Part shown: positions 1-15,279 of the stretch, in pieces
Numbering within the stretch: the stretch's first letter is position 1
Layout: every line of letters begins with the position of its first letter
From: an uncultured Candidatus Bathyarchaeia archaeon
Lineage (GTDB): Archaea > Thermoproteota > Bathyarchaeia > Bathyarchaeales > Bathycorpusculaceae
Assembly: GCA_964450845.1 (NCBI GenBank)
Contig: CAYVGZ010000028.1
Coordinates: 1 to 17,203 of the forward strand
Length of the DNA: 17,203 bases
Reading direction: 5' to 3'
The notes under the pieces: model-generated
The model's input: the letters and a program-made list of their open reading frames with translations, nothing else
What the model was told of the DNA's origin: nothing
The model's database searches: none
Program-made: the position numbers and the translations under genes

Positions 1-31
1 CACGCACACACAGAACAATAGGATAGAATAT

Positions 32-37
32 AAAAAA
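32..37 (-). terminator. Oligo-T tract after tuf, possible archaeal terminator
   Basis: T6 on the minus strand 13 nt after the tuf stop; could instead be part of a TATA box for the next gene. Confidence 0.3.
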
Positions 38-50
38 TGGAGATAGACGC

Positions 51-1355
51 TTATGGTCCTTTCTTTGTTATTTCCTTCACAACACCAGCAGCCACAGTAG
101 TACCCATGTCCCTAACCGCAAACCGTCCAAGCTCAGGAAAATCGCTGTAGCTCTCAACCGAAATCGGATGCAAAGGCTCCATACGCACTAAAGCAGCATC
201 ACCAGTCTTCAAAAACGCAGGCTTCTCCTCAACAGCCTGCCCAGTACGCGGATCAATCTTCCTAATTAGCTCAGTGAACCTGCACGCAATCTGCCCAGTG
301 TGATAGTGAAGAACAGGCGTGTAACCAGCAGCAATAGCAGTTGGATGATAAATCACAATTATCTGCCCAATGAACTCGTTAGCCACAGTCGGCGGATTAT
401 TAACTGGACCAGCAACATCACCACGACGAATATCAGTCTTTGACACGCCTCTCACGTTAAATCCTATGTTATCGCCAGGCTCAGCCCTAGGAATCCTAGT
501 GTGATGCATCTCTAAAGACTTAACTTCAGCCTGCTTGTTAGCTGGCATAAACATTATCACATCGTTTTCTTTAAGCACACCAGTTTCAACCCTGCCAACG
601 GGAACAGTGCCAACACCAGTAATAGTGTAAACATCTTGAACAGGAACACGCAACGGCTTGTCAAGTGGTTTAGGAGCCAACTCGAAAGTGTCCAAAGCAT
701 CCATCAGTGTTGGTCCCTTATACCATGGCATTTTGTCGCTTTGTTTAACAAGGTTGTCACCCGTCCATCCAGAAGTGGGCACAAACGGAATCTTCTCAGT
801 CTTATAACCGACCATTTTAAGCATTCTTGAAACTTCATTTTTAACTTCATCGTATCGCTCTTGACTCCAATTAACTGAAGCATCATCCATCTTATTGACA
901 GCCACAACCAACTGGCGAACACCTAACGTGAAAGCCAAAAAACCATGCTCTCTTGTCTGGCCACCCGCTCCAATGCCAGCTTCGAATTCTCCACGTTTGG
1001 CCGAGACAAATAGTATGGCGCCATCAGCTTGGCTTGCTCCAGTGATCATGTTTTTAACGAAGTCTCTGTGTCCCGGCGCATCTATAACTGTGAAATAGTA
1101 TTTTTTGGTTTCAAATTTTAAGAATCGAAGGTCAATTGTTAAGCCTCTTTCCCGCTCTTCTTTTAGGTTGTCGAGAACCCATGCGTACTTGAAAGTTTCT
1201 TTGCCCATCTTCTTGGCTTCTTCTTCGTAGGCTTTGACTGTTCGTTCATCAACTGCTCCTGCTAAGTATAACATGTGTCCTGTTGTTGTTGATTTCCCAT
1301 GGTCTACGTGTCCCATGATTACTAGGTTTAAGTGTGGTTTTTGGGTTTTGCTCAT
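51..1355 (-). CDS. tuf: Elongation factor 1-alpha (aEF-1A)
   Basis: [29 protein letters not shown] and C-terminal [10 protein letters not shown] motifs; SD GGAGG 7 nt before the ATG. Confidence 0.99.
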
Positions 1356-1530
1356 TCTTTTTCCTCCTTTATCCTTATTTCAAATTCCCTTTAAATTTTA
1401 GTGAATCGTTTACACAACTGTTCATTCAATTATTTTAACTTTACCATAGCATAATAAGATGAGACGTTTACTACATTGGAAACAAATATTAAAGTTAACT
1501 TTGGAAATTATTGATTGGACGCGTTTGTTT

Positions 1531-2706
1531 ATGCCAACAAACTTGCCTCCCGACGCTAAGAAGAAATGGGCAGAGGTTGAAGCAACCAAATATCCAAGAG
1601 AAAGACTTCAACGTATGGAAGAATTCTTGAGTTTAGTTCCCAAACATAAGGGCACATTAAAACTTTGTGGACAAACTAAAAAGCAAATTGCAACTTTGCG
1701 AAAAGAAATTGAGGAAAAGAAACGAAGAAAAGCTGGGAAAGGTGGACCAAAGTTTTTCATAGAAAAGGAAGGCGCAGCCCAAATAGCTCTTCTCGGTTTA
1801 ACAAACGTTGGAAAAAGTAGCTTACTTGCAACGGTTACAAATTCGCAGGTTGAAGTTTCCGCTAATCCTTACACCACAAGACAGCCCACGCCAGGAATAA
1901 TGAATTACGAGGATATTCAATTTCAAATAGTAGAAGCCCCAGCCTTAATGGAAGGCTCTGCGGATGGAAGAGCTGGAGGACTGCAAACTCTGGCTTTAGC
2001 ACGAAATGCTGATGGGCTAATTTTAATGGTGGATTTATCCCGAGATCCTGTAGAACAGTTATCGCTTATCTTAAGTGAAATGGAGAAAGCCCGAATATTG
2101 GTTAGCATGCCAAAGGCACGTGTTGAAATTGAGAGGAAGTTCATGGGTGCAGGCTTGCGGATAATTTTGATTGGAAGGCTTGTGGACTGCAATTTTAAAG
2201 ATGTTGAAGAGCTTCTAAGAAGTTACCGCATTACGGATGCAGTTGTAAAAATTTCTGGAGAAGCCACATTGGATGAAGTTGAAGACGCAATCTTCGAAAG
2301 CACAGTATATAAGCCTGCGGTGATTGTTGCAAATAAAATCGATTTGGAAGGCTCAGAAGCGAATCTAAAATCCTTAGAGGATTACGTTGGCAACAAACTG
2401 CCTATCCTTACAGTTTCATGTGAAAAAAACCATGGTCTGGAAAAACTTGGAGAAACCATGTTTAAAACTTTAAACATTATACGAGTTTACACAAAAGAAC
2501 CGAACAAAAAAGAGTTTTCTAAAAAACCTTTTATCCTAAAAAACGGTTCAACAGTCTACAACTTAGCCAAAAACATCCACAGCGACTTCAGCAAAAAATT
2601 CTCCTATGCAAAAGTTTGGGCTAAACGCCTTGTTTTCAGCCCCCAAAAAGTTGGATCCTCATTTGTTCTAAATGACAAGGACATCGTTGAAATTCACGTA
2701 AAATAA
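1531..2706 (+). CDS. DRG/RBG-like OBG-family GTPase with C-terminal TGS domain
   Basis: MPTNLPP N-terminus, G1 GLTNVGKS, G2 PYTT, G4 NKID, TGS-like IRVYTK...KVWAK...DKDIVEIH; G3 is atypical (EAPA). Start moved from 1459 to ATG 1531 by family N-terminus and an AT-rich box near 1485-1495. Confidence 0.88.
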   Translation: MPTNLPPDAKKKWAEVEATKYPRERLQRMEEFLSLVPKHKGTLKLCGQTKKQIATLRKEIEEKKRRKAGKGGPKFFIEKEGAAQIALLGLTNVGKSSLLATVTNSQVEVSANPYTTRQPTPGIMNYEDIQFQIVEAPALMEGSADGRAGGLQTLALARNADGLILMVDLSRDPVEQLSLILSEMEKARILVSMPKARVEIERKFMGAGLRIILIGRLVDCNFKDVEELLRSYRITDAVVKISGEATLDEVEDAIFESTVYKPAVIVANKIDLEGSEANLKSLEDYVGNKLPILTVSCEKNHGLEKLGETMFKTLNIIRVYTKEPNKKEFSKKPFILKNGSTVYNLAKNIHSDFSKKFSYAKVWAKRLVFSPQKVGSSFVLNDKDIVEIHVK

Positions 2707-2723
2707 TTTTATCAAAATTGTCG

Positions 2724-3320
2724 CTATCTTGAGGATTGGGCTATTCTTTCTAACTCATGGCGTTTCGAAACCGCATAGCTTTTCATGTCGTGGTTTGCCG
2801 CCAACACCAATTCTTCTGCTAGGCATTCTTCGATTGAACGTGGATTGTTTATTGATGCTTGCCTTGCCGCCTCGCAGATGTTTCTTAAAGCCAAGTCAAG
2901 CCTTCTCTGTGGAGCGACATCAATTGACAAGTGGTATACTATGCCCCCGTAGCTAATCCTTGTCGTATCTTCACATGGTGCAGAGTTTTCCACAGCCCTA
3001 ACGAGAACCTCTAGGGGGTTTTTGCCAGTGCGCAGATGGATTATTTCGAAGGCATGGTTCACAATGTTCATGGCTTTAGCTTTTTTTCCAGCATTTCCTC
3101 CAAGTCGCATAAGATTGTTTACAAGTCTTTCTACAATGTTGACGTTTGCTTTGCGAAAACGCTTATGTTCATGCCTTCCCATACTGTGCGGAATTACCAT
3201 GGGTTTTAGGGAGATATACCTCTGTAAACCCAAGTCCTTTACTTGAACTTCTTTAAAACTCCATTTCTCAAAAAGTTTAATTTCTTGCTTTTCTTCTTGT
3301 GCCTGAGTCAAAATGCTCAC
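2724..3320 (-). CDS. rps7: 30S ribosomal protein uS7
   Basis: [47 protein letters not shown]; GTG start overlaps the rps12 stop (GTGA). Confidence 0.98.
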
Positions 3321-3757
3321 CGTGCAGGTTTCTGCTTTCTTCCATAAACAAGTTCATTTAATGATACGCCGTTAATCATTATGACTTTCCAGCGTACTCC
3401 TGGAATGTCGCCCATGCTTCTCCCACGGGAACCGCCTATACCATCAACTATTACTTCATCATGCTCATCAACAACGTTTAGAGCTCCGTCTCCGGGTAGA
3501 AAAGCGGTTATGACTCTACCGTTTTTTATAAGTTGAGTCCTCACACATTTCCTTATAGCGCTGTTGGGTTGCTTACTTTCCACGCCTACTTTTTCGAGGA
3601 CTATGCCTCGGCCCATGGGTGCTTTCTCAAGAGGATCAGACTTCACGTCGAGCCTTAGTGTTCGCCGTTTATAGTACATGTTGCTCCAGCGTAGTTTTTT
3701 TCGTCTTTTCAGTAGTTTTCTTGCAGCGAATTCGCCTTTTGGGGATTTTGAACCCAT
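3317..3757 (-). CDS. rps12: 30S ribosomal protein uS12
   Basis: [32 protein letters not shown]. Confidence 0.99.
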
Positions 3758-3797
3758 GTTTTTCTTTTTCCTCTCGCTACGTCTAATCCAACACTAA

Positions 3798-3805
3798 TAT
3801 TTAAA
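3798..3805 (-). promoter_or_regulatory. TATA box for rps12-rps7
   Basis: TTTAAATA on the minus strand about 40 nt upstream of the ATG, followed by an SD-like GAGAGG. Confidence 0.5.
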
Positions 3806-3847
3806 GTGTAACGTGCAAATTCTCCTCGCATTTAAGGATAAATATGT

Positions 3848-4240
3848 CTATGATTTCGCTATTTGCAACGTTAACTTTTCTCCATTGCGGTTATACACTG
3901 CAACGGTTCTCTCGTCCGCAAACGGAAAGCCAACAATCATGAGTACAACCCCAAAAACATGATTCAAATCAGCATTGGAGGGAGTCAAATTTCCAGAAGG
4001 ATGCGAATGCACGGTTCCAACAATGGAAAAATCCATGGGCAACATATGAATTGGAATATTGGCGAAACCTGAACCATAAGTAGCCAAAGGCGGAACAACA
4101 ACCTCAGAAATCTCGATGCTGTTCTTCTTTTTTTTACCCCTAAGAAGCAGGATTATCTCCTTTGGATAAAGCCTTCGGGCACCTTCAAGAACCGCCTGTA
4201 ACAGTTCCTCGCGAACCAAAACGAATGTACTCGAACTCAT
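3848..4240 (-). CDS. JAB/MPN+ (JAMM) metalloprotease, desampylase-like
   Basis: Upstream Glu (YPKE) plus HSHPSGNLTPSNAD matching H-x-H-x7-S-x2-D; TAATTAA about 26 nt upstream suggests a leaderless start. Confidence 0.9.
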   Translation of the reverse strand: MSSSTFVLVREELLQAVLEGARRLYPKEIILLLRGKKKKNSIEISEVVVPPLATYGSGFANIPIHMLPMDFSIVGTVHSHPSGNLTPSNADLNHVFGVVLMIVGFPFADERTVAVYNRNGEKLTLQIAKS

Positions 4241-4306
4241 ACAACATCAGAATCATCCAATCTTAATTATCTTTACTAACCAGAAAGTGAAAAATTGTAG
4301 AAACCC

Positions 4307-4355
4307 AAAGTTGAAGCTATATATAGGGGGCTATAAATTTCGCAGAGAGCAAAAG
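4307..4355 (-). repeat. Dispersed bipartite motif, copy A
   Basis: Reverse complement CTTTTGCTCTCTGCGAAATTTATAGCCCCCTATATATAGCTTCAACTTT; 41/46 aligned columns identical to copy C. Confidence 0.9.
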
Positions 4356-4440
4356 TAAACCCCTCCAAAAACTCGTAGTCAAGCAAAAAACAAAAATCAA
4401 TCCCTAAACAAACTAAGACAAAACAAAAAAGGCAGATACT

Positions 4441-5229
4441 ATGAACGATTGGCGGTTGCTAAAACTCGAAACTCGCGATGCCTACAGAAACATGGCTATA
4501 GACGAAGCCATACTAACCGCCAGAATAGGAGACCTTACCTCAAACACGATAAGGTTCTACCGCTGGAATCCATCCGCCGTTTCTATTGGAAAATTTCAAA
4601 ACATTGAAAATGAGGTTCATTTAGGCAACTGCAGAAAGCATGGTGTAGATGTTGTTAGGCGCATAACTGGTGGTGGCGCAGTTTACCATGATGCTGAAGG
4701 CGAAATCACCTACAGCGTAGTCGCCAGCAAAAAAGATTTGAAAGCCGAAAACATAAACGCTGTTTACGCTAAATTTTATGGTGGAATAGCAGAAGCGCTC
4801 AAGATTTTAGGATTAAAGGCAGATTTTAACGAAGGCAACGCAAAAACATGCCCAAACCTAACTGTAAACGGCAAAAAAATCTCAGGAAGCGCTCAATCTC
4901 ACAAAAAAGGCATAGTCTTGCAACACGGAACACTACTCATAGAAGTAAACCTGCAGAAGATGTTCACAATACTACGAGTACCATGGGCAACTTCTTGCAT
5001 GCAAGTCGTCAACATCGCAAAAAATAAAATCACCTCAATACAAAAAGAAACCGCAAGAAACATCCCAATAAGCGAAGCAGAACAAGCATTAATCCAAGGC
5101 TTCCAAAGAACATTAAACATTAAGCTATTAGAAGGCAAACTGACAACCTATGAACGTGAACTTGCGGAAAAGCTTTACAAACAAAGATACACAACAGACG
5201 ATTGGAATTTCCACGGGAAAAACCAATAG
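4441..5229 (+). CDS. Lipoate-protein ligase A family catalytic domain (no C-terminal domain)
   Basis: NMAIDEA, RRITGGGAVYHD, NGKKISGSAQ (catalytic Lys), LQHGTLL. Confidence 0.92.
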   Translation: MNDWRLLKLETRDAYRNMAIDEAILTARIGDLTSNTIRFYRWNPSAVSIGKFQNIENEVHLGNCRKHGVDVVRRITGGGAVYHDAEGEITYSVVASKKDLKAENINAVYAKFYGGIAEALKILGLKADFNEGNAKTCPNLTVNGKKISGSAQSHKKGIVLQHGTLLIEVNLQKMFTILRVPWATSCMQVVNIAKNKITSIQKETARNIPISEAEQALIQGFQRTLNIKLLEGKLTTYERELAEKLYKQRYTTDDWNFHGKNQ

Positions 5230-5238
5230 GTGAACATC

Positions 5239-5616
5239 ATGGTAAGAGTTGCACTCTTGGATTTAGAAGAACCAAAAAATCGAAACCGCTGGATAATCGG
5301 AACACCAGAAGACATCCCGAAAACCTCACCATTCTACTCCGAACAAATCCAAATCGCACACGTCAAAAACCCGCGAAAAGGTTTATTGGAAAAGGAAGAA
5401 GAGCACTCGCACACACCGCCGATAGAAGAATATTACCTAGTCTTAGAAGGCACATTAACAGTCAAAGTAGAAAACAAAGAAATCACCATAAAACCAAACC
5501 AAATACTAACCATACCACCAGAAAAACGCCACAAAATCACAAACTACACGCTACCGCTTAGATGTTTCACCATACGCGCCCCAATCTCAACACAAAAAAC
5601 AAAAATAACAGAATAA
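5239..5616 (+). CDS. Cupin-domain protein
   Basis: HSH-x4-EEYYLVLEG and IPPEKRHKITN motifs with intact His/His/Glu/His ligands; SD AGGTGA overlapping the upstream stop favours ATG 5239. Confidence 0.85.
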   Translation: MVRVALLDLEEPKNRNRWIIGTPEDIPKTSPFYSEQIQIAHVKNPRKGLLEKEEEHSHTPPIEEYYLVLEGTLTVKVENKEITIKPNQILTIPPEKRHKITNYTLPLRCFTIRAPISTQKTKITE

Positions 5617-5625
5617 AAGGGCACT

Positions 5626-7053
5626 TTATACCTTTCGCCATCTGACACCTTCAGGTGTATCTTCAACGATTATGCCCATCTGCTTAAGCTCTTCCCTAAT
5701 TTTGTCCGCTGCCTTCCAATCTTTGGCTTTTCTTGCTTCTTCTCTTTTTTGAATAAGTTCTTCAGCCTCTTTAGACAGTTTCTCTTCCTTCTCAACCTCG
5801 CCAATCACGCCAAGAACCTTGTCAAACCTCATCATCAACTCATAAACTTCTTGAGCCTCTTCCTTACTAAGCATATTGTCGTCCACAAGTTTGTTCACAT
5901 CTCTTACAAAGTCAAACAGCGCAGCCAACGCCACACTTATGTTAAGGTCATCATCCATAGCTCCTTCAAAATCCTTTCGCACGCGATTAATTAGATTCCT
6001 TATCTCTTCTCCGCAACCTTTTCCATTAGCTTTCACCAGTTTGTACACAAAGTTAGTTAGTCGATCCACTGCACTCTTCGCAGCTTCTAACCCTTTGAAA
6101 GTGAAGTTTAATTGTTGCCGATAATGAGTTGCCATAAGTAAGTACCGAATAGCCTTCGGATCATAACCTTTTGCTGTTAAATCCTTCAATGTAAAACAGT
6201 TGCCAAGACTCTTATGCATGGCTCTTCCTTCAACAAGTAGATGCTCATTATGAAGCCAGTAATCTGCGAATTTCTTACCCGTCGCTGCCTCGCTTTGTGC
6301 AATTTCATTTTCATGATGAGGAAACATATTGTCCACTCCGCCACTATGGATGTCTATGGTTTCACCTAAATACTTCATAGCCATCGCTGAACACTCAATA
6401 TGCCAACCAGGATAGCCCTTTTCACACCACGGCGATTTCCAATTCATAATGTGTCTAGGATCATTTATCCACAGCGCAAAATCAAACTGATTCTTCTTAT
6501 CCGAATTATACTCTACCTTTCCACCTGCCCCAAGTTTTAACTTCTCAATCGTGTTACCAGAGAATTTCCCATAGTCTTCAAATTTTGCAACATCAAAATA
6601 GACAGACCCATTCACAACATAAGCATAGCCTTTCTCTACCAATTTTTTCACTAGCTCAATCATTTCATTAATATGATCTGTAGCCCTAGGCCTAACCATT
6701 GGTTCTTCAAAATTCATTACCTTAGCATCTTCCAAAAACGCCTTAATATAAAAATCAGCCACAGCCCAAGGATCCTTCTTTTCCCTCATCACCGCAGCTT
6801 CCATTTTATCCTCTCCTATATCGACATCCTCAAACATGTGCCCAACATCAGTAAAATTCATAACCTGCTTAACCGTGAAGCCCTTGTATTCCAGATATCT
6901 CCTTAAAACATCTGCAAACGTAAATGCACGCAAATTTCCTATAGTTGCATAATCATAAACAGTTAAGCCACAGTTATACATCGTTACAATACCCTTCTTC
7001 AACGGTTTGAATATCTCTTTCTTCTTGGAAAACGTATTATACAACTTGAGCAT
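5626..7053 (-). CDS. cysS: Cysteine--tRNA ligase
   Basis: [38 protein letters not shown]-terminal ADKIREEL; HIGH and KMSKS appear as TIGN and AMHKS. Confidence 0.95.
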
Positions 7054-7247
7054 CTAACCACCCCACTTCGATGTCCCTTCCATTACCATTGAACCGTGTT
7101 AACCACGTAAAGTATCTATTTATCTAAGTTATACTTTTCTTCTAAATCAAGTGCCAAAAACCAAAATTTTGCCTAAAATTCCCACATTGAACAACATAAA
7201 ACAAAACAATAAGACCAACAAAAGAGTCTTGCGCTGAAACAAATAAA

Positions 7248-7403
7248 CTAATCATATTTTTTTAATTTTATCATTTCTCTAAAATTTTTCAGATCTTGAG
7301 CTACTTGCTTTAGAAAATGAAGTTCCTCCATTGTCCTTTCGAATTTTGCAAATTCCTCTCGAATCTTCTTCACGAAACGCTCATTTTCATCCATTCCTCG
7401 CAT
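7248..7403 (-). CDS. Small helical hypothetical protein (51 aa); may extend to GTG 7453 across a 1-nt frameshift
   Basis: Manual translation MRGMDENERFVKKIREEFAKFERTMEELHFLKQVAQDLKNFREMIKLKKYD; below the ORF-track cutoff; amphipathic pattern. Confidence 0.45.
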   Translation of the reverse strand: MRGMDENERFVKKIREEFAKFERTMEELHFLKQVAQDLKNFREMIKLKKYD

Positions 7404-7453
7404 CCTCACGTATGACTCAAATGGAGGGCTTTCATCGTTTTTTGGCTAACCAC

Positions 7454-7550
7454 GCAACCACTTCCGTCATCGAGGAGAAAGGAGAAGGCTTCGAAAACGG
7501 AAAAACCGATTCTTGGTTGCTTGAAGCTTAGCCTTCAACCTTAGCCCTCC
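7454..7550 (-). ncRNA. Candidate structured leader RNA (strand inferred)
   Basis: Nested stems GCAACCA/TGGTTGC, TTCCGT/ACGGAA and TCGA/TCGA, plus adjacent TTGAAG/CTTCAA; TTTTTATA box near 7585-7592. Confidence 0.45.
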
Positions 7551-7633
7551 ACACTGCATCGTAAGACTTAAGACATCATCCGCCTATAAAAACGTTGCTG
7601 AATAAGGCGAATGCACAGACATTAAGGTGAAGT

Positions 7634-8188
7634 TTAGCCTATTGCTAAGATGCCTTCTAAAATGTTTTTTTCGGGAATGCCGAGTTGTTTTGAGAGCCAT
7701 GTTTTTAAGAGTGGGGTTTGTTTTGGGAGTTCGCCGCTGTAGGTTATGATTTGGTTGTCTTTTAGTGCGTCTACTTGGAAGGTTTTTTCGGTTTCTCTGT
7801 ATAGGAAGGATAGTGTTTGGGCTTGGTTGGCTAGTGTTTGAAAGTCTTCCCATTGTTTGCAGCGTAAAATGACGGGGGGTCCTTTCACTTCTTTAGCTTG
7901 TGATGTTTCAGGTCTTTGTTCTTGTGTTAATTGTGTTAGCACTGGGGGAGCTTCGTGTGAAGCTGACAAATATGTGATTAGGTTTGCTATTTCATTCTGT
8001 AATGTTGTTAGTCTCTCTTCAACTTTCTCTATTTTTCCGCTTAATACACCAGTATCGCCTAGTCTTTCGGTTATGCCACCTAACTCACTTATTAATTTGT
8101 CCAAGTCCTTTTCATGCTCTTTTAAAACATTCACTATAAAGTCTAGAGCTTCTAAGGCATCGTTTTTCGATGGAGGTTTCTTGGACAT
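7634..8188 (-). CDS. Hypothetical protein: N-terminal coiled coil, Pro/Gln linker, alpha/beta C-terminal domain
   Basis: 184-aa ORF, SD GAGG upstream, heptad-like N-terminal half, TTTATAAA box near 8228-8235. Confidence 0.8.
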   Translation of the reverse strand: MSKKPPSKNDALEALDFIVNVLKEHEKDLDKLISELGGITERLGDTGVLSGKIEKVEERLTTLQNEIANLITYLSASHEAPPVLTQLTQEQRPETSQAKEVKGPPVILRCKQWEDFQTLANQAQTLSFLYRETEKTFQVDALKDNQIITYSGELPKQTPLLKTWLSKQLGIPEKNILEGILAIG

Positions 8189-8526
8189 TGCTTTTTTCCT
8201 CTTTCTTCAACCTATTAATGTCCGTTCTTTATAAATAAACGTAGCGAATCCTCAAAACATATCCAGACGAAGACGTATCCATATTAATTGAGAATCATGT
8301 GTGGTATTTTTGAATTAAGCACATGTTTCATCTTTCGCTTTTCGGCGCTCCACGGAAAATCAAACTCTCCTTATAGGCTGTAGATTTGTCGCAGTGCGTA
8401 ATTTTTGTTTTGTCAGACAATAGATGTTTGGTGCAGTTTTGTTGTCGGAGAGGTTAAGATTTGATGAGAGGGTTAAAATATCGGTTTTAAAATGAGTTAG
8501 ATACCCATTAAAAAGTGGGCTTTGCC

Positions 8527-9948
8527 ATGCAAGGAACATTGGGTTTCTCTGAAAAAGAAGAAATTGTTAGGTTCATCTCAGAAAAAGGCGTCAAAATCCT
8601 TAATTTGTGTCACATTCCAGAAGATGGAAGGTTAAAAACCCTAAGCTTTTCAGCAATGGATAGGAACAGAGTTTATGAGATTTTGGAGTTTGGTGAAAGA
8701 GTGGATGGCTCAAACCTATTCCCATTCATCGAGCCAGATAAAAGCGACATTTACATAATGCCCAAAATTGATAGAGCCTTCACTAACCCTTTTTCAACAA
8801 TTCCTACACTCAACATTTTATGTGATTATTTGGATGAGCATGGAAAACCGCTTGATGTTGCACCGAAAACTGTTTTGGTGAGGGCAGAAGAAAAATTACG
8901 CTCTTCAACCGGAGTTGTTCTAAAAGCTTTAGCTGAACTCGAGTTTTACGTGATTTCTAAACAAGAAAATGAGACACTTTTTCTTGGAGCACCAGACAAG
9001 AATTATCATGAATCTGCTCCTTTCACAAAATTTGAGAATTTAAGGAATGAAGTTTTGGCTATGCTGGCTGACGTTGGCGTTGCTACCAAGTATGGACACA
9101 GCGAGGTTGGCCGAGTTTTTAGTAAAGGCGGTATATTCATGGAACAGCAGGAAATAGAGTTTTTGCCACAGAATTTAGCGGAAATGGCTGAAACAATCGC
9201 AATTGCAAAGTGGGTCATCCGAAACATTTGCGTGAAACATGTTGTGTCCGTGTCCTTTTCCCCTAAAATATCTCTTGACCATGCGGGAACTGGGATGCAC
9301 ATTCACTTGTGCGCATTGAAAAATGAAGAAAATATAGTTGCAAATCCAAATGGAACCTTAAGTGCCGAAGCCCTGAAAATAATTGGTGGAATATTGAAGT
9401 TTGCACCAAGTCTCACAGCCTTTGGAAACACAACACCCGTATCCTATCTACGTTTTATCTCACGAAAAGAGTCTCCAATGCACATTTGTTGGAGTGCTAG
9501 AAACCGTTTAGCTCTGATACGGATACCATTATGGTGGAGTTTCGTAAAGAAGGGCGAAGAAGAGGACAGCATTAGGGAAACTTTTGAGTACAGGGCTCCA
9601 GACCCGTTGGCGAATGCTTACTTGCTTTTTGCAGGAATAGCTTTAGCTGTAAATTATGGTTTAGAGAACTCGGAAGAGGCTTTGAAAATGGCTGAAGACT
9701 TGCACGTTGAAGGAACTGGCGGTGGAAGGAAAAGGCTTAGAATTTTGCCGCGGTCTTGCAGCGAATCGGCGAAAAACCTTAGGAAGCATAGAGGATTTTA
9801 TGAGGCGAACGACGTTTTTCCAAAAAAATTAATCGATAATACTATAGATAAATTGAGAGCGTATAGGGATAAGGATTTGTGGAAGAATTTGGCTGATAAG
9901 CCAGAAAAAGTCGAAAGCGTGCTAAAGCAGTATTTGCATTATGGCTAG
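8527..9948 (+). CDS. glnA: Glutamine synthetase family protein (GSI-like, divergent)
   Basis: DGSN, AELEFY, HSEVG, EQQEIEF, GTGMHIH, NRLALIRIP, EYRAPDP..NAYL; ATG 8527 preferred to GTG 8515. Confidence 0.9.
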   Translation: MQGTLGFSEKEEIVRFISEKGVKILNLCHIPEDGRLKTLSFSAMDRNRVYEILEFGERVDGSNLFPFIEPDKSDIYIMPKIDRAFTNPFSTIPTLNILCDYLDEHGKPLDVAPKTVLVRAEEKLRSSTGVVLKALAELEFYVISKQENETLFLGAPDKNYHESAPFTKFENLRNEVLAMLADVGVATKYGHSEVGRVFSKGGIFMEQQEIEFLPQNLAEMAETIAIAKWVIRNICVKHVVSVSFSPKISLDHAGTGMHIHLCALKNEENIVANPNGTLSAEALKIIGGILKFAPSLTAFGNTTPVSYLRFISRKESPMHICWSARNRLALIRIPLWWSFVKKGEEEDSIRETFEYRAPDPLANAYLLFAGIALAVNYGLENSEEALKMAEDLHVEGTGGGRKRLRILPRSCSESAKNLRKHRGFYEANDVFPKKLIDNTIDKLRAYRDKDLWKNLADKPEKVESVLKQYLHYG

Positions 9949-9957
9949 TTAAATGCT

Positions 9958-10002
9958 CTTTTGCTCTCTGCTTGACTAGACCCCCCTTATATATAGGTTC
10001 AA
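9958..10002 (+). repeat. Dispersed bipartite motif, copy B
   Basis: CTTTTGCTCTCTGCTTGACTAGACCCCCCTTATATATAGGTTCAA; first 14 nt identical to copy A and same 16-nt spacing. Confidence 0.85.
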
Positions 10003-10159
10003 TTGCTGTTTTGACTGGAAGAAGAAAGTTCTTTTTGATTGGTCAAAATTGTGTTCTGGTTTTGCAAGAGGTTCTCAGAAACTTTAAGTAAAGGCAAAGT
10101 TTAGAATAGCCTTAACATCCAAAAACAGTTGGAAATATTATTGAGGCGTGGCTTTGCAT

Positions 10160-10237
10160 GGGCGGGTAGATCAGTTTGGTATGATCGCCACGTTGGCATC
10201 GTGGAGGCCGCGGGTTCAAATCCCGCCCCGTCCACCA
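10160..10237 (+). tRNA. tRNA-Ala(GGC), CCA encoded, no intron
   Basis: Acceptor GGGCGGG/CCCGTCC with G3:U70, D stem GATC/GATC, anticodon stem CCACG/CGTGG with GGC at 10195-10197, T arm GCGGG-TTCAAAT-CCCGC. Confidence 0.97.
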
Positions 10238-10406
10238 GACACAGCGTTGGCATCCTAGTTTGTTTCATTCCGCTTGTATGTTGTGTTTCCTGAATTTTGT
10301 TCGCTATTCTTTTGATGTTCTGTTTTTTGATATATGTCTGGGGTCGAAGGAAGTGCTTTATTGAGATTTACGATATAGAATTGTAGTGGCACAGGGTGTT
10401 GGGAAT

Positions 10407-10643
10407 ATGAAGAAAGGGAAAAAGGTAGATTTGCGCGACGTTCAACTCGTTGAGAGCATAAAGCTTGCGTGGAAGGCTAGAAGGCAGGTTCAACAGGAAA
10501 TCTTGCAGAAGAAGCTGGTGCAATGTTTCTTGAAGCCACGCAAAGGACGCAAGTGTATTCAGCGATACCCTGAAGCCATGCAACCGATGATTAAGGATTT
10601 CATGCGAAAAGCCGAGGAGCAAACGAGACTTTACCGCCTATAG
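10407..10643 (+). CDS. Small basic hypothetical protein
   Basis: ORF with GGGTG SD-like element before ATG 10407; Lys/Arg-rich; no family recognised. Confidence 0.5.
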   Translation: MKKGKKVDLRDVQLVESIKLAWKARRQVQQEILQKKLVQCFLKPRKGRKCIQRYPEAMQPMIKDFMRKAEEQTRLYRL

Positions 10644-10690
10644 CATTACGCTTCTCTCATCATTCCTATATGTCTGCACGCTTTCTCTTA

Positions 10691-10736
10691 TGCTCTCTGC
10701 AAAAATTTATAGCCCTCTATATATAGATTGAACTTT
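10691..10736 (+). repeat. Dispersed bipartite motif, copy C
   Basis: TGCTCTCTGCAAAAATTTATAGCCCTCTATATATAGATTGAACTTT. Confidence 0.9.
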
Positions 10737-10782
10737 TAGTATACTCCGTTATGGAGGCTTGCAAGTTCAAGAACTTAGGCTT

Positions 10783-10998
10783 TTATGGTTTGGGTTTTTT
10801 CGCTGTTTTAGGGTTTGTCGTGGTTAGAATTACTAATCCATCTTCACTTTGCTCATAGTTTTCGACTTGTTTAAAAAGCCATTCCGTTAACTTTTGACAT
10901 TCATTTGGGTTGCAATACAGATGGCTGTCTTTTTTCCATTCCCAAAACAAGCATTTAAAACATGGAATCTCTGCTAAAACGTCAACATTAGTTTTCAT
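10783..10998 (-). CDS. Small 4-Cys metal-binding protein, possibly a TFEbeta/RPC34 C-terminal Fe-S-domain homologue
   Basis: IPCFKC-x12-CNPNECQKLTEWL. Confidence 0.6.
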   Translation of the reverse strand: MKTNVDVLAEIPCFKCLFWEWKKDSHLYCNPNECQKLTEWLFKQVENYEQSEDGLVILTTTNPKTAKKPKP

Positions 10999-11235
10999 GC
11001 TGCACCGTGAAAGTGAAGGCTCGAAGGTTTAACTTATACATTATGAATCGGCAAGCATGACAAAACCTAATGATTACGATTTCTGATTCACAGTTTTCTT
11101 GTAATGACGATTTAAAATGGAAAAATTAAAATGCAAGTTTCATTGAAATTACCTGTCGGACGGCTGTAAAGATGATTCCACAGTAATAACGTTCATTGCT
11201 TTGAACAACTAAACAGCCTAAATTCTGAATCCGAG

Positions 11236-12468
11236 ATGTTTTTAATGTTGAAACATTTGAGAGAAGAGTTTAGTTTCGTTCATGGAAACGTTTTGATACT
11301 CATAACCATGTGGACAATTACAGATTTTGCCAACTTTCTTCCAAACACCTATTATTCGCTTTACGTTGAAGCTTTAGGAGCTTCAGCATTCCTACTAGGC
11401 GCCATATTGTCTGCTGCCAGTCTCGCCATGGCTTTCCTTCTTTTGGCAGGGGGCTATTGGGCTGACAGGTACGGAAGAAAACTGATAATCGTAACCGTGA
11501 GTTTCCTAAGAGGCTTGACCTTTTTGATTTTTGCGACAGCACCAACATGGCACTTCATTCTCTTAGGCGAAGTATTGCTAGGCATATCTTCAATATCCGA
11601 GCCTGCTGTAGGAGCCCTTTTTGCAGATTCATTGCCACCTGAAAAACGTGGCTTAGGCTATTCTTTCTCTCTAGTAGTTGGCGCCACTTCAATACTTTCG
11701 CCTCTAATCGCAGGGTTGCTTTACATAAGCTTCAGTTTAGTCCAAGCAATGCGAATAACCTACTTAATAGTCTCTGCATGCTGGTTCACTGCTGGAACGA
11801 TATCTCTCAGACTAACAGAAACCATAAAACCTGAAACTGTCAAAATTTCGATAACGCAAGCGGTAAAACAATATCCAAGAGCCATCAAGGAATGCGTAAA
11901 CGTTTTAAAACTTCTTCCTAAATCTCTTCTTAACCTTATTCTCGTTTTTACACCAATCATGTTTTTCATAAGAATGTGCACGCCATATTACGTGTTATAC
12001 GCAAACCATGTTTTGCAAATAGAGGAATTCCAATGGGCACTACTGCAAACTTGGTCTTCCATAGTTTTCTACATTTTACTGCTTCCAATAGGTAAATTCG
12101 TAGACGTTTTTGGAAGAAAAAAGCCACTCTTGCTATCCTCAATATTTTTTGCCTTAGGGCTTTCACTATTTTTATACGGGAATTTGCTTCGGCTTTATGT
12201 TTTCTTTGCCCTATCTGCAATAGGCAACGCAATGGTTTTCACAGCATATCCCTCATTACAAGCCGACTTAACACCGAAAGAAATCAGAGGAAAAGTGATA
12301 GGCTTCACAAGCTTTCTAGACTGCATTTTAGCTTCCGGAGCATTACTCTTAGGAGGCGTCCTCTACGAGAAAGTCGCACCCGCAACTCCTTTTCTTTTAC
12401 AATTAATCGCCATGACCATTACAGCTATAGCAACGTTCTTCTTCATCAAAGAAACCGAAACCAAATAA
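11236..12468 (+). CDS. MFS transporter
   Basis: About 12 hydrophobic segments; motif A GYWADRYGRK and its repeat GKFVDVFGRK. Confidence 0.93.
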   Translation: MFLMLKHLREEFSFVHGNVLILITMWTITDFANFLPNTYYSLYVEALGASAFLLGAILSAASLAMAFLLLAGGYWADRYGRKLIIVTVSFLRGLTFLIFATAPTWHFILLGEVLLGISSISEPAVGALFADSLPPEKRGLGYSFSLVVGATSILSPLIAGLLYISFSLVQAMRITYLIVSACWFTAGTISLRLTETIKPETVKISITQAVKQYPRAIKECVNVLKLLPKSLLNLILVFTPIMFFIRMCTPYYVLYANHVLQIEEFQWALLQTWSSIVFYILLLPIGKFVDVFGRKKPLLLSSIFFALGLSLFLYGNLLRLYVFFALSAIGNAMVFTAYPSLQADLTPKEIRGKVIGFTSFLDCILASGALLLGGVLYEKVAPATPFLLQLIAMTITAIATFFFIKETETK

Positions 12469-12612
12469 AAATAATCAAAAGAAAATTGCATTTTTCTCCT
12501 ATGCGAATATTCACTTTACAAGTAATCGCCCCAAAAGTTTTCACTTTTGTCAATAAACGTTATCTATAAAAGGCAAGCTTACTATTCTAAAACATAACAA
12601 AGTCGGGAAAAC

Positions 12613-12948
12613 ATGACACAAGAATCAGACAATAACGAATCAGCTCCACCAGAAAAGCTTCTAATTGATAACCTATCTGACTTTCGGTTTCACGCTGCCT
12701 ATCTCACCTACTCCGACATCTACGACAAAACAGCCAACCCCGAAACCAAGAAACAACTAAACCAGAACATTACGGCGCTCCAACAAAATCAAATAGACTA
12801 CCCAACCTTTTACAGAAACATAGATCAATACCGAACAGGAGAGGGTTCCCAGTACAGCCACGGCAGAAGTCTTATAAAAACACAGAAAAAACGAGAATGG
12901 CGCATAAAAACGCAAAAACGAGAAAGAAACAAACGACACAGAAAATAA
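12613..12948 (+). CDS. Hypothetical protein with a very basic C-terminal tail
   Basis: 111-aa ORF; TCTATAAAA box near 12563-12571; tail IKTQKKREWRIKTQKRERNKRHRK. Confidence 0.75.
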   Translation: MTQESDNNESAPPEKLLIDNLSDFRFHAAYLTYSDIYDKTANPETKKQLNQNITALQQNQIDYPTFYRNIDQYRTGEGSQYSHGRSLIKTQKKREWRIKTQKRERNKRHRK

Positions 12949-12972
12949 CAACTATATTTATTTGCAGACACA

Positions 12973-13605
12973 CTAGGCTTTTAGCCTTACACAATAACCC
13001 GTGCTTTTTCCAATCCTTAACTGCCGTTCACCTCTAAACATGGACACGCGTGCATTCTCAATTTGAACAGTGTCTCCTACAGAGATGGAACTTATTTGCT
13101 CATTCCATAGACAAAGTTTGATTGTTCCAGTTTCGTCCTCTATCAAAGCGTTGGCTACGCTGGCATAGTTTCCAAACCTCGTAAAGACAAGCGTTGGTCT
13201 TGCAACTTCTAGAATTTTAGCCTTCAAATTAACTTCTTTCATTCCAGTTCGTAAGTCTCTAATGTGAAGGAAATGCGGCTCCTTGTTTCCCTTATTTAGA
13301 TGTCTGCGGACCATGTTAGGGTTTATAAGATCCTTAATTGGATTGCCTTGTCCCAAGAGAAATTCTTTGGGTATTGGAAATTGTGCAACAACTTTTTGAC
13401 CCTTCGTTATTAAAAGAACAGTCTTGTCATTTAATTTACTGCGACATTTGATCAAAAGGTTTCCGCACATGGATTTTTGGTTTTCCCCTGCTGAGATTAA
13501 AGCATGAAAAAGTTTGTCGGGGTCAACTTCATATTTTATAGAAAGAAAGGCGAGATACTCGCCAATTGATACTTTGCTTCGCAAGGTTTTCCTACTCTTT
13601 TGCAA
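12973..13605 (-). CDS. Unknown N-terminal domain fused to an SSB/RPA-type OB fold
   Basis: C-terminal half IRDLRTGMKEVNLKAKILEV...EDETGTIKLCLWNEQ...GDTVQIENARVSMFRGERQLRIG matches the crenarchaeal SSB OB pattern; TTG start overlaps the end of alba by 14 nt. Confidence 0.85.
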   Translation of the reverse strand: MQKSRKTLRSKVSIGEYLAFLSIKYEVDPDKLFHALISAGENQKSMCGNLLIKCRSKLNDKTVLLITKGQKVVAQFPIPKEFLLGQGNPIKDLINPNMVRRHLNKGNKEPHFLHIRDLRTGMKEVNLKAKILEVARPTLVFTRFGNYASVANALIEDETGTIKLCLWNEQISSISVGDTVQIENARVSMFRGERQLRIGKSTGYCVRLKA

Positions 13606-13879
13606 GCGTTATTTCCATTGTCGAAACCATCCGTGCTCTGTTTTCGCCTTCCCTTGGTGGCATCTCTTCTGTCCCTATGGATATTTTGCTTATCTTTAGG
13701 TCCTTTAGGAAGCGATTTCTGGCTATTTCAGCCACGTCAACTGCTGTTGTTATTGCTCGTCCTCGGGCTTTCAGCGTTATTTCTTTAGCATCAGATGCCG
13801 ATAGACTTGTAATGATCGCTAGAACGTAGCTCATTGCAGGTTTATTTCCAACGAAAACAATTCCAGATCTTTCCGCCAT
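13592..13879 (-). CDS. albA: DNA/RNA-binding protein Alba
   Basis: VFVGNKPAMSYVLA, LKARGRAITTAVDVAE, VSTMEITL; SD GGAGTGA. Confidence 0.96.
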   Translation of the reverse strand: MAERSGIVFVGNKPAMSYVLAIITSLSASDAKEITLKARGRAITTAVDVAEIARNRFLKDLKISKISIGTEEMPPREGENRARMVSTMEITLAKE

Positions 13880-13906
13880 TTTCCATCACTCCTTTTATTG
13901 TTGATT

Positions 13907-14018: not shown

Positions 14019-15137
14019 CTATTCCAACTCTTCTATTGTAGTTTTCGTCAAGGCTTTAATATTGTCGAATTCTGTTAGCTCTCCGTAGCCCACAAGCGAT
14101 ATGGCTGTTCCTTCCAGCCCCATTCTAGCAGTTCGCCCGATTCTATGAAAATACACTAGCGCATCTAATGGAATATCATAGTTTATTATATGAGTTATTC
14201 CTTGAATGTCCAGGCCTCTCGCAGCAACATCCGTTGCAACAAGCAACTTCAATTTTCCCCTTCTGAAAGAGTTGACAACGAAGTCTCTTTGCGGTTGAGT
14301 GAAGCCAGCATGCAACGGTTTTGCGTCATATCCACGGGCTCTTAGCTTATCTGCCAGCATGCTAGTGTCTGTACGTGTTCTGCAGAATATTATGGCTCGA
14401 CCTATATGGTTTTCATCCAAGACGTTGCATAGAATTTGAAACTTGTTTGCAGGGTTCACAACCATATAATACTGGTTTATCTGTGTGAGGGCTATTTCAT
14501 CTTTGCTCACGAGTATTTTTTCAGGTTTGTTCATGTATCTATTGCATACATTCATTACTGATTGGTCTATTGTTGCCGAGAATAGGCTTGTTTGCCTGTT
14601 TTTTGGCACTTTTGAAAGTATGTATTCTATATCATCTATGAATCCCATATCGAGCATTCTATCAGCCTCGTCGAGGACAACAATTTTCACTGATGCTAGG
14701 TTTAGTGTTCTTCGTTCCAGATGATCTATTATGCGACCTGGCGTGCCCACAACAATTTGGACGCCGCCTTTCAGCGCGCTTATTTGTTTTTGGATAGGTT
14801 CTCCGCCATAAACTGGCAAGACATTGAATGCTGCAAATTTGCCAAATCGGCTTATATGGTCTGCAGCCTGTATGGCAAGCTCACGCGTTGGTTCTAAGAC
14901 TAAGCCTTGAACAGTGTTAATTCTTGGGTTTAGGCGTTCAATCATTGGAATTCCGAAAGCCGCCGTCTTGCCTGTTCCAGTTTGTGCTTGTCCAATAACA
15001 TCTTTGCCCTCAAGTAATGGAGTCATTGCTTGCGCCTGAATTGGAAAAAGATCACTAAATCCAAGCTCTTCAATGCCTTTCATAACTTCTGGACTTAACG
15101 GCAAATCTTTAAAGTATTGCATTTGCATATATTTCAT
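14019..15137 (-). CDS. deaD: DEAD-box RNA helicase, core only
   Basis: Q motif GF..LFPIQ, AQTGTGKT, PTRELA, GTPGRI, DEAD, SAT, TDVAARGLD, HRIGRTAR; start is one of ATG 15137, 15128 or 15122 after SD AGGAG. Confidence 0.96.
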   Translation of the reverse strand: MKYMQMQYFKDLPLSPEVMKGIEELGFSDLFPIQAQAMTPLLEGKDVIGQAQTGTGKTAAFGIPMIERLNPRINTVQGLVLEPTRELAIQAADHISRFGKFAAFNVLPVYGGEPIQKQISALKGGVQIVVGTPGRIIDHLERRTLNLASVKIVVLDEADRMLDMGFIDDIEYILSKVPKNRQTSLFSATIDQSVMNVCNRYMNKPEKILVSKDEIALTQINQYYMVVNPANKFQILCNVLDENHIGRAIIFCRTRTDTSMLADKLRARGYDAKPLHAGFTQPQRDFVVNSFRRGKLKLLVATDVAARGLDIQGITHIINYDIPLDALVYFHRIGRTARMGLEGTAISLVGYGELTEFDNIKALTKTTIEELE

Positions 15138-15238
15138 TTCTCCTGTCACAAAAATTTTGCATGCAATTTTCAAAAGCCTTCAAAAGCTTCTTTAATGTAA
15201 GCATGAATTAATGTGACCAACTCCATTAAGCAGTAACC

Positions 15239-15250: not shown

Positions 15251-15279
15251 GGTTTAGCGCATTTTTTCAAGAATTGAGG

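Follow-up and report, generated by a model that had tools for sequence, protein, structure and literature searches.

Strand-specific G+T and A+C patches in the genome of an uncultured Bathyarchaeia archaeon

The genomes of this sediment archaeon and its relatives carry a DNA-level, strand-specific substitution bias in box-like patches of 0.2–5 kb, which is not an effect of coding or expression. Within a patch one DNA strand has an excess of G+T, and the other of A+C, at freely variable positions (the free sites, defined as codon position 3 and intergenic sites). The A and C of one strand have been replaced, bringing that strand to ~75–90% G+T at silent and intergenic sites, and the amino-acid composition is dragged along by this drift. 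The patches are a real, heritable footprint of a one-strand mutation process, and their pattern lies outside every described model of replication or transcription. As a general claim, local mutational pressure on one strand is very probable. Approximately 29% of free sites genome-wide lie in patches, with a G+T of ~0.29 or ~0.69, and neutral DNA between the patches accounts for about 65–70% of sites.

About 30% of the genome, including the core genes for EF1a and CysRS, is under a local directional pressure that is able to alter proteins. Phylogeny, codon-usage analysis, the detection of HGT and the prediction of origins in these archaea use substitution models that are stationary and strand-symmetric, and the pressure violates what those models assume.

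The patches along the window

The window is the whole stretch of DNA analysed, 17,203 nucleotides in length. Genome-wide, keto/amino is the sole overdispersed axis, with a variance ratio of 3.55 compared with 1.46 for purine and 1.41 for GC3. In the window 20 of the 286 non-overlapping 60-mers contain at least 42 bases of one class, where ~0.8 would be expected. The 60-mers singled out in the earlier note have exactly the composition given there (A+C 49/60 at 4381–4440 and 42/60 at 7141–7200; G+T 43/60 at 8401–8460 and 44/60 at 10261–10320). The same note divided the plus strand into seven blocks, and at free sites the sign of all seven is correct:

1–950: plus-strand G+T 0.27, z −8.4
951–2350: plus-strand G+T 0.55, z +2.4
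2351–2715: plus-strand G+T 0.34, z −3.5
2716–3800: plus-strand G+T 0.58, z +3.3
3801–7400: plus-strand G+T 0.345, z −12.4
7401–11000: plus-strand G+T 0.56, z +5.4
11001–12960: plus-strand G+T 0.40, z −6.3

The kilobase-scale flipping is thus upheld. An HMM resolves the ‘GT blocks’ into short strong patches (984–1366, 3560–3769, 7627–8147, 8379–8474 and 10256–10401) amid near-neutral DNA. The patches, with coordinates from the HMM segments and G+T as the plus-strand fraction, are as follows:

1–948: A+C-rich, G+T 0.27; 3' two thirds of EF1a (minus strand), reaching the contig end
984–1366: G+T-rich, 0.73; 5' third of EF1a (minus)
2472–2658: short, A+C-rich, 0.25; 3' end of the DRG GTPase gene (plus)
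3560–3769: short, G+T-rich, 0.73; start of S12 (minus)
3917–7245: main A+C-rich domain, 0.21–0.29; JAB (minus), intergenic DNA, LplA (plus), cupin (plus) and CysRS (minus); HMM segments 3917–4282, 4346–4578, 4695–5619, 5794–5932, 6358–7069 and 7150–7245
7627–8147: strongest G+T-rich patch, 0.80; 3' two thirds of the hypothetical coiled-coil gene 7634–8188 (minus), hyp7634
8379–8474: short, intergenic, G+T-rich, 0.72; upstream of glutamine synthetase, holding the 60-mer 8401–8460
9864–10827: scattered G+T-rich segments (plus) at 9864–9897, 10027–10063, 10145–10181, 10256–10401 and 10775–10827; ORF-poor DNA around and downstream of tRNA-Ala (10160–10237, plus)
11706–12954: A+C-rich segments (plus), 0.21–0.31, at 11706–11880, 12216–12485 and 12586–12954; 3' half of the MFS gene and hypothetical gene 12613–12948 (both plus), ending where the convergent SSB gene has its stop codon
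14466–14910: weaker G+T-rich patch, 0.66; within the DEAD-box helicase gene (minus), beyond the range of the earlier note

Patch edges lie mostly within genes and do not follow gene boundaries. Polarity flips within EF1a at ~950–985, and the right edge of the strongest patch falls within gene 7634–8188. No motif was found at the patch edges. In the main domain the coding strands of minus genes are G/T-rich and those of plus genes A/C-rich; the third positions of the cupin gene are A 0.54, C 0.30, G 0.11 and T 0.05. The GC skew at 5001–5750 is −0.16 to −0.34, with A exceeding T by 0.24–0.46, and at 7651–7950 it is +0.39, with a T−A of +0.45.

The skew is carried by codon position 3 and intergenic DNA, and not by positions 1 and 2. 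At 4-fold sites the G+T-rich strand contains A 0.12–0.17, C 0.08–0.11, G 0.26–0.30 and T 0.44–0.52, with G/C and T/A ratios of 3–4 in patches, and its composition is approximately equal whether it is coding, template or intergenic. Positions 1 and 2 have a G+T of 0.44–0.53 within the blocks of the window, and they shift in the same direction as patch polarity.

Gene direction is irrelevant to the skew, as had been claimed: the sign of the correlation between neighbouring genes follows their relative orientation (tandem r = +0.48 to +0.50; convergent −0.33 to −0.47; divergent −0.36 to −0.42). Coding strands are A+C-rich as often as G+T-rich, and their G+T at position 3 has a mean of 0.47 with symmetric tails. 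Three of the four wobble counts reported previously are exact, namely 28/40 codons ending A/C at the start of S12, and 25/40 ending G/T (2101–2220) and 31/40 ending A/C (2521–2640) in the GTPase; the last 40 JAB codons give 24/40 ending G/T, not 29/40, and the whole JAB gene has 0.67 G/T-ending codons. The skew also persists after control for amino acids and genome codon usage, the loss of which had been named as a refutation (conditional z +9.3 for the 3' half of EF1a, +7.9 for CysRS, −6.5 for cupin and −6.4 for hyp7634; −3.3 for GTPase 2521–2640 after amino-acid conditioning).

Relatives and the substitution spectrum

Positions 27–10240 of the window are collinear with an independent assembly of a congener (G002), which has the same flip in EF1a; the refuting condition of recent inversions or assembly joins thus fails as well. 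Local skew correlates with that of the congener (r = 0.83) and of another genus (r = 0.60); a near-closed relative of 1.46 Mb (G010) shows the effect more strongly. In the latter the autocorrelation of plus-strand skew is 0.48, 0.22 and 0.04 at lags of one to three genes, slightly negative at lags 4–7 and ~0 beyond lag 10, giving a correlation length of 2–3 genes. The local skew is largely common to relatives, apart from patches gained, strengthened or reversed in sister lineages. The 1–948 patch, in which the coding strand of EF1a is G/T-rich, is common to the congener only and absent in the other genera sampled; the first third of EF1a has A/C-rich wobble positions in many sampled relatives, most clearly in G008 and G010.

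Comparison of the source genome (G000) with the congener reveals strand-coordinated changes. At 7651–7950 there are 37 transitions in which G000 has G/T and one in the opposite direction, next to a stretch (7951–8250) with 96–97% identity. Transitions are 50:11 in the G/T direction at 10201–10650 and 0:24 at 14101–14400, beside the 14466–14910 patch. Over 221 kb of alignment there are 55 strand-coordinated transition clusters, and 27 windows of 20 transitions have an absolute sum of at least 16, compared with 0.36 expected. When polarised with the near-closed relative, 345 of 364 changes begin at A or C of the strand gaining G+T. The main substitutions on that strand are of the expected type (C>T, 144; A>G, 126), a point in favour of the earlier note, and are accompanied by A>T, A>C, C>A and C>G, while T>C, G>A, T>A and G>C are depleted; A<->C and G<->T transversions show a 40:5 asymmetry. 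Changes are enriched at silent sites, with 677 at position 3 and 349 at positions 1 and 2.

Transversion density is equal inside and outside the clusters, and the fraction of clusters within 600 nt of recombinationally replaced segments (0.30) does not differ significantly from random (0.23, n = 53). The derived residues that G000 carries in the hyp7634 cluster are unlike those of a candidate donor, G008, and both sister lineages have changed in place, in opposite directions. Alleles have been exchanged between genera at CysRS–cupin, where two allele classes of opposite polarity are at odds with the species tree; the exchange also has a part in the protein change of CysRS, which is only 63% identical between the two congeners. 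At abrupt junctions the 3' ends of G+T-rich strands meet 24 times as against 7, a mostly terminus-like rather than origin-like arrangement, and most patches have no partner of opposite polarity.

Relation to described strand asymmetries

The closest published kin of the patches is GRINS (2021, PMC8256042), in which GC and TA skews, of either sign, are intense and positively correlated within 1 kb. The earlier note knew of no described mechanism, a statement to be qualified by the publication of these skews as a phenomenon. GRINS skew is strongest at third codon positions and shifts amino acids between Gly, Val, Cys, Trp and Pro, Thr, His, Gln (PMC8256042). The patches share these features: over more than 500 bp they show positively correlated GC and TA skews whose mean absolute values exceed 0.15, together with the third-position maximum and the amino-acid shift. 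By definition, however, GRINS are duplications of >500 bp, each with another copy at >80% identity, found in PKS and further repeated genes, and they are linked with gene conversion among paralogues (PMC8256042). The strongly skewed tracts are single-copy, with no >80% identical copy in the same cluster or genome; the only second copies of window sequence within its own genome are SSB (77%), Alba (81%) and intergenic repeats of 45–60 bp. Unlike GRINS, the patches occupy single-copy core genes and intergenic DNA, cover ~30% of an archaeal genome and are common to the whole order.

Replication strand asymmetry, and that of the H and L strands of animal mtDNA, similarly raises G and T and lowers A and C through C>T and A>G, and in animal mtDNA the amplitude at 4-fold sites is comparable. 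Patch polarity nevertheless changes every 0.2–5 kb, not only at origins and termini, with neutral DNA around. Replichores are coherent over hundreds of kb, whereas the 17 kb of the window contain several flips, some of them in genes. Transcription-associated asymmetry, a G+T excess of the non-transcribed strand (PMC2927911, PMC10030826), resembles the patches in axis, substitutions, local scale and direction past tRNA and rRNA genes. The patches differ in their far larger amplitude and in having no relation to annotated gene orientation, boundaries or likely expression, and a coding-strand G+T excess bounded by transcription units was not found. Kataegis, the clustering of changes in ssDNA at resected breaks (PMC10030826), is likewise strand-coordinated, with sharp limits and polarity pairs fitting two 3' tails, and the patches contain such clustered substitutions (37:1 at 7651–7950; 27 windows against 0.36). 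Patch changes, by contrast, are stepwise, under purifying selection, heritable and conserved across genera, with A>G and C>T about equally frequent; the silent-site enrichment and these counts do not fit a single, cytosine-only (APOBEC-type) event.

Possible origins of the bias

The explanation as a whole, a one-strand bias produced by ssDNA templating and NucS, is offered with somewhat less than even confidence. The mechanism itself, the likeliest of the candidate causes, is tentative: one strand would recurrently be an ssDNA template in repair or recombination, and NucS would be blind to the mispairs. In each patch the same strand might repeatedly be single-stranded, either as a 3' tail after long resection or in a gap being filled during recombinational or other repair. 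A and C are the bases damaged in ssDNA, and NucS/EndoMS cuts G/T, G/G and T/T mispairs well and A/C, A/A, C/C and A/G poorly, so that errors opposite template A or C would survive and the template strand would gain G+T. In very slowly dividing cells repair synthesis could exceed replication as a source of mutations.

The preferred substrates of EndoMS are G/T, T/T and G/G mispairs (PMC4838380; PMC6159521), to which the depleted T>C, G>A, T>A and G>C changes correspond. The 24 junctions with 3' ends together, against 7, are the expectation for two resected tails around a break, and the exchange of CysRS–cupin alleles of opposite polarity between genera also speaks for the mechanism. NucS was found in the source genome, and 28 of 31 searched genomes of the same order also have it. 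Among sampled outgroups keto overdispersion occurs in 0/8 without NucS and 5/11 with it, a weak association (one-sided Fisher ~0.04) from 20 kb samples per genome and related genomes. NucS is also found in three sampled sister-order genomes that have no patches, and is therefore necessary at most. Because UDG and EndoV are there, the bias cannot be put down to a simple loss of deamination repair. Several points count against the proposed mechanism: the absence of edge motifs, clusters not significantly nearer to replaced segments, the lack of opposite-polarity partners for most patches, and the 40:5 transversion asymmetry, which NucS specificity does not predict. The repeated exposure of the same strand at the same place over evolutionary time, which the mechanism leaves unexplained, also counts against it. 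[quoted passage not shown]

It is possible, though rather unlikely, that an undescribed strand-specific DNA process is recorded across a whole archaeal order, either as one-strand exposure with the NucS A/C blind spot or as self-propagating skewed alleles, and that it could also underlie bacterial GRINS. Patch maps would then be a sequence-only readout of the place and strand of ssDNA in uncultivated, slow-growing archaea, and a major source of their protein divergence would be identified.

It is unlikely that the bias stems from long-lived R-loops or from cryptic transcription that is not translated, in either the sense or the antisense direction. The non-template strand would be exposed in slow-growing cells, where deamination or alkylation would remove its A and C and make it G+T-rich, and patches would be self-sustaining because GC skew favours R-loops; they would then form a fossil R-loop map. 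The changes do originate at A and C on a single strand, the patches are about as long as known R-loops, and reviews tie non-template-strand deamination and GC skew to R-loops (PMC10030826). The sense strand is also G+T-rich downstream of tRNA genes (0.58–0.59 in the near-closed relative, against 0.45 upstream), of 16S rRNA (0.54–0.69 over ~900 nt) and of 23S rRNA (0.90 over the first 125 nt), which lends slight support to the earlier suggestion of R-loops or antisense transcription. Against it, 5' edges of the G+T-rich strand show no TATA-like enrichment or other promoter signal, edges lie mostly within genes, the profile past stop codons is flat, giving no read-through signal, and coding strands are equally often A+C-rich. 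In highly expressed genes the coding strand is not G+T-rich, and over the 1 kb that precedes 23S rRNA the sense strand is A+C-rich.

Recombination filtered by NucS is a quite unlikely drive. Only donor alleles giving A/C, A/A or C/C heteroduplex mispairs would escape cleavage; conversion tracts would pass strand-coordinated allele subsets, and skewed alleles would invade more easily and spread, as in the proposed life cycle of GRINS. Box-like tracts without edge motifs, the conflict of the CysRS–cupin allele classes with the species tree, the outgroup association of NucS with skew, the fit of transition and A<->T / C<->G asymmetries to EndoMS specificity and the tie of GRINS to gene conversion (PMC8256042) are consistent with this. 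Against it stand the in-place, opposite changes and non-donor residues of hyp7634, and clusters with unchanged transversion density and no enrichment beside replaced segments. A random invading strand, moreover, should cancel the bias rather than give 80–90%.

Replication skew with a G+T-rich leading strand, either scrambled by frequent inversions or arising from many close origins, is very improbable. The near-closed relative has a weak chromosome-scale cumulative keto curve, and patch polarity balance per 80 kb tracks this background (r = 0.74), but the autocorrelation is 0.04 by the third gene and ~0 further out; this loss after 2–3 genes largely refutes replichores with inversions. Flips within intact EF1a, hyp7634 and GTPase genes, and collinearity with the congener across flips, argue in the same direction. 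Neutral DNA at 65–70% of sites and terminus-like junctions also speak against it, and make the many local priming or strand-displacement sites proposed earlier a poor fit.

Selection acting on amino-acid composition, on codon preference linked to expression or on the structure of mRNA (RNA rich in A/C being unable to fold) is refuted as the main cause by the conditioning, intergenic and orientation tests, and is extremely improbable: z reaches 9 after amino-acid conditioning, intergenic DNA has the same skew, opposite-strand neighbours are anticorrelated, strand composition is the same whichever strand codes, and positions 1 and 2 are dragged along. In most sampled relatives the wobble positions of ribosomal proteins, EF1a and Alba lean mildly towards A/C, which probably contributes a small component at gene level.

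Least probable of all is an artefact of assembly or binning (chimeric contigs, damaged DNA or strain mixing), since, although the genome comes as a MAG in 120 contigs, one of them a 197-kb phage contig, that contig is without the effect (keto variance ratio 1.42), the silent-site enrichment means that the changes have passed selection, and the same patches occur in the independent congeneric MAG and more strongly in the near-closed relative.

Keto skew within the window

The window, an entire contig (C28) of a 1.64-Mb metagenome-assembled genome (MAG) in 120 contigs (referred to as G000), carries the genes listed below, whose identities were assigned by Pfam, and one tRNA gene.

51-1355, minus strand, EF1a
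1459-2706, plus strand, DRG-type GTPase
2724-3320, minus strand, S7
3317-3757, minus strand, S12
3848-4240, minus strand, JAB
4441-5229, plus strand, LplA
5230-5616, plus strand, cupin
5626-7053, minus strand, CysRS
7634-8188, minus strand, coiled-coil hypothetical gene (hyp7634)
8515-9948, plus strand, glutamine synthetase
10160-10237, plus strand, tRNA-Ala
11236-12468, plus strand, MFS transporter
12613-12948, plus strand, hypothetical gene
12973-13605, minus strand, OB-fold SSB
13592-13879, minus strand, Alba
14019-15173, minus strand, DEAD-box helicase

An earlier note described a mosaic of A+C- and G+T-rich blocks on the plus strand. Its four 60-nt composition counts are exact on recount, as are three of its four wobble counts; the last 40 JAB codons include 24 ending in G or T rather than the 29 counted previously. 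The sign of all seven proposed blocks is right (z 2.4 to 12.4), but the G+T blocks consist of short strong patches, in which one strand is G+T-rich and the other A+C-rich, within near-neutral DNA. Splitting the plus-strand keto (G+T) skew by site class assigns it to third codon positions and intergenic DNA, with positions 1 and 2 near 0.5. Coding-strand G+T at position 3 ranges across the window genes from 0.16 (cupin) to 0.67 (JAB), and inside EF1a the position-3 skew passes from -0.80 to +0.64. The proposed independence from gene direction holds, since JAB (minus), LplA (plus), cupin (plus) and CysRS (minus) are all A+C-rich when read on the plus strand and so lie within a single block.

It had been allowed that the skew might vanish after control for amino acids and codon usage. 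When the amino-acid sequence is conditioned out with genome-wide codon usage, z values of up to 9.3 remain, and this conditioning together with the intergenic sites rules out amino-acid composition and codon preference. Nor are the blocks recent inversions or assembly joins, as 27-10240 is collinear with an independently assembled congener (G002) that has the same flip in EF1a.

Genome-wide extent and strand dependence

The skew is real and genome-wide, and most of the genomes sampled from the order have it at a raised level. Across the 1500 ORF-based genes called in the whole MAG, G+T at position 3 is overdispersed (standard deviation of z 3.3). In 50-codon windows the overdispersion is confined to the keto axis (variance ratio 3.55, against 1.46 for purine and 1.41 for GC3), and a 197-kb phage contig from the same bin gives a keto ratio of 1.42. 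An assembly artefact is ruled out by the recurrence of the pattern in independent assemblies and its absence from the phage contig of this bin. A three-state HMM assigns about 29% of the free sites of G000 (position 3 and intergenic) to patches whose G+T is 0.29 or 0.69. In the near-closed 1.456-Mb genome of a relative from another genus (G010), analysed in full, patches of 0.25 or 0.73 G+T make up 34% of the sequence (log-likelihood gain 16,000). After merging, the median patch measures about 200 nt, 90% of patches are no longer than 1 kb and 99% no longer than 3.2 kb. The largest, at 1-4811 of G000 contig C4, extends over 4.8 kb and three minus-strand genes; its plus strand has 75-80% A+C in each of the codon positions, and it is the most extreme patch in G000. 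In 20-kb samples, keto overdispersion is 1.4-7.0 within the family and 1.5-3.6 in other families of the order, being raised in most genomes, and 0.96-1.29 in three sister-order genomes.

Coding-strand G+T at position 3 correlates positively between tandem neighbours (+0.48 to +0.50) and negatively between convergent (-0.33 to -0.47) and divergent (-0.36 to -0.42) neighbours. Autocorrelation of the plus-oriented skew of G010 drops from 0.48 at lag 1 to 0.22 at lag 2 and 0.04 at lag 3; lags 4-7 give slightly negative values, and longer lags values of about zero. This decay, the intragenic flips and the collinearity with G002 rule out replichore skew combined with inversions. A cumulative keto curve is present but weak at the scale of the G010 chromosome, and the polarity balance of patches per 80 kb follows it (r=0.74); fork direction may therefore modulate the patches, but does not define them. 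The composition of the G+T-rich strand at 4-fold sites is about equal in coding, template and intergenic settings, and codon positions 1 and 2 move in the same direction as the patch skew, which together indicate that the patches reflect mutation pressure and not codon selection.

When patches are oriented by their G+T-rich strand, their average profile is a symmetric box, which rules out directional decay away from a start site. Patch edges are mildly enriched at gene boundaries (15% versus 9% within 30 nt) and in intergenic DNA (22% versus 13% expected). Among 6- and 7-mers at both edges none exceeds chance. The 45-bp repeated intergenic motif was rejected as a marker of flips, its window copies (around 4300, 9950, 10690 and 11030) lying away from them. 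For patches of opposite polarity that meet within 100 nt of each other, the plus-strand order is G+T then A+C in 24 cases and the reverse in 7.

Substitutions between relatives and candidate mechanisms

In 300-nt windows, local skew in G000 correlates with that of G002 within the genus (r=0.83) and of G010 within the family (r=0.60). The sign is kept in G010 by 88% of windows strongly skewed in G000, a figure for alignable DNA only, in which reversals are under-counted. G000 and G002 nevertheless differ by strand-coordinated transitions, with counts of 37:1 at 7651-7950 (beside a stretch of hyp7634 that is 96-97% identical), 0:24 at 14101-14400 and 50:11 at 10201-10650. The 221 kb aligned contain 55 such clusters, and 27 windows of 20 transitions have an absolute sum of at least 16, against 0.36 expected. 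Changes within clusters fall at position 3 (677), in intergenic DNA (315), at position 1 (210) and at position 2 (139), and from this distribution it follows that they accumulated under selection, not in one event. Transversion density is equal within and outside clusters. The hyp7634 cluster contains derived changes in both sister lineages, in opposite directions; import of this patch from a donor resembling another relative, G008, is unsupported by the derived residues of G000. An association of clusters with neighbouring recombinationally replaced segments is not significant.

Polarisation of 18 clusters with G010 gives, on the strand gaining G+T, 144 C>T, 126 A>G, 26 A>T, 20 A>C, 20 C>A and 9 C>G changes. 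The reverse-complement classes on the same strand are T>C 9, G>A 2, T>A 3, T>G 2, G>T 3 and G>C 0. The A and C residues of one strand are thus miscopied in every direction. Loss of deamination or mismatch repair is ruled out, as UDG, EndoV and the mismatch endonuclease NucS (EndoMS) are all present in G000. The preferred mispairs of EndoMS/NucS are G/T, G/G and T/T, and it cuts A/C, A/A, C/C and A/G inefficiently (PMC4838380; PMC6159521), so that an error made opposite A or C of the template would escape it. This specificity fits four of the six depleted classes, and the A<->C / G<->T asymmetry is unmatched. Keto overdispersion of at least 1.9 occurs in none of 8 outgroup samples without NucS and in 5 of 11 with it. 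These 19 samples (three from sister orders, the other 16 from elsewhere in the phylum, 20 kb each) are noisy and the genomes related, and for that reason the association is only suggestive. No UDG (PF03167) was found in two relatives with genomes 96-97% complete, G004 and G005, where keto overdispersion is 7.05, the highest of all samples, and a raised 3.11. Its absence is a weak lead to the skew, since G010 combines UDG with strong patches.

The general reading of a one-strand process of the single-stranded-damage type is supported, while none of the specific mechanisms first proposed for it is shown. Tentatively, and with somewhat less than an even chance, the patches would arise where one strand is recurrently used as a single-stranded template in repair or recombination, this use acting together with the NucS blind spot. 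R-loops are an unlikely cause. The sole positive sign for them, or for transcription generally, is that in G010 the sense strand following tRNA, 16S rRNA and 23S rRNA genes is rich in G+T; the metagene skew profile around stop codons is flat, giving no sign of read-through from upstream genes. TATA-like hexamers, learned from upstream regions, show no enrichment at the 5' edge of the G+T-rich strand and are enriched about 1.4-fold just past its 3' edge only. Still less probable as the cause is a conversion drive filtered by NucS.

Literature searches found no account of such skew patches in Bathyarchaeia. The closely comparable features of GRINS, published tracts of intense skew, are correlated GC/TA skews of either sign within 1 kb, whose mechanism is unexplained (PMC8256042). 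The patches match GRINS in these paired skews, in their concentration at position 3 and in amino-acid drag, but the duplication that defines GRINS is absent from the skewed tracts here. Asymmetries of the replication, transcription and kataegis types each have at least one defining feature that the patches lack.

Further features of the window

At 1355-3757 EF2 is missing from the usual archaeal S12-S7-EF2-EF1a arrangement, and S7 and EF1a are separated by the DRG-type GTPase in opposite orientation, an organization kept in G002, G008, G010 and a further relative, G014. Both G000 (window 1-50) and G002 (contig C57, 1-557) break off within about 50-560 nt downstream of EF1a, in the A+C-rich patch. 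The break in two independent assemblies suggests a repeat or hard-to-assemble region just past the contig end.

Downstream of hyp7634, 7248-7634 contains no ORF of at least 80 codons; its conservation is about 89% in G002 and about 74% in G010. Substitutions by position modulo 3 (20/12/11 and 38/27/20) show weak codon periodicity only. Candidates for the segment are a small gene, a non-coding RNA and a long 3' UTR. Two further stretches of about 1.3 kb, 9948-11236 and 15173-16507, have no ORF of at least 85 codons. Within them 10296-11102, 15677-15925 and 16071-16380 are 79-87% conserved in relatives, and given this partial conservation the stretches likely hold unannotated small genes or RNAs. 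An intergenic repeat of 45-60 bp occurs at 4298-4371, 9949-10033, 10687-10736 and 11029-11089, with dozens of copies on other G000 contigs and in G002, G008, G010 and another relative, G011.

Finally, two haplotypes are found at 4800-7200, comprising the 3' end of LplA, cupin and CysRS. In G000 and G008 the cupin gene is present and the CysRS coding strand is G+T-rich; in G002 and G010 cupin is absent and that strand is A+C-rich. CysRS sequences have an identity of 0.77-0.79 inside a class and 0.62-0.63 across the two, a pattern at odds with the species tree, which indicates that segments at CysRS-cupin have also been exchanged between genera.
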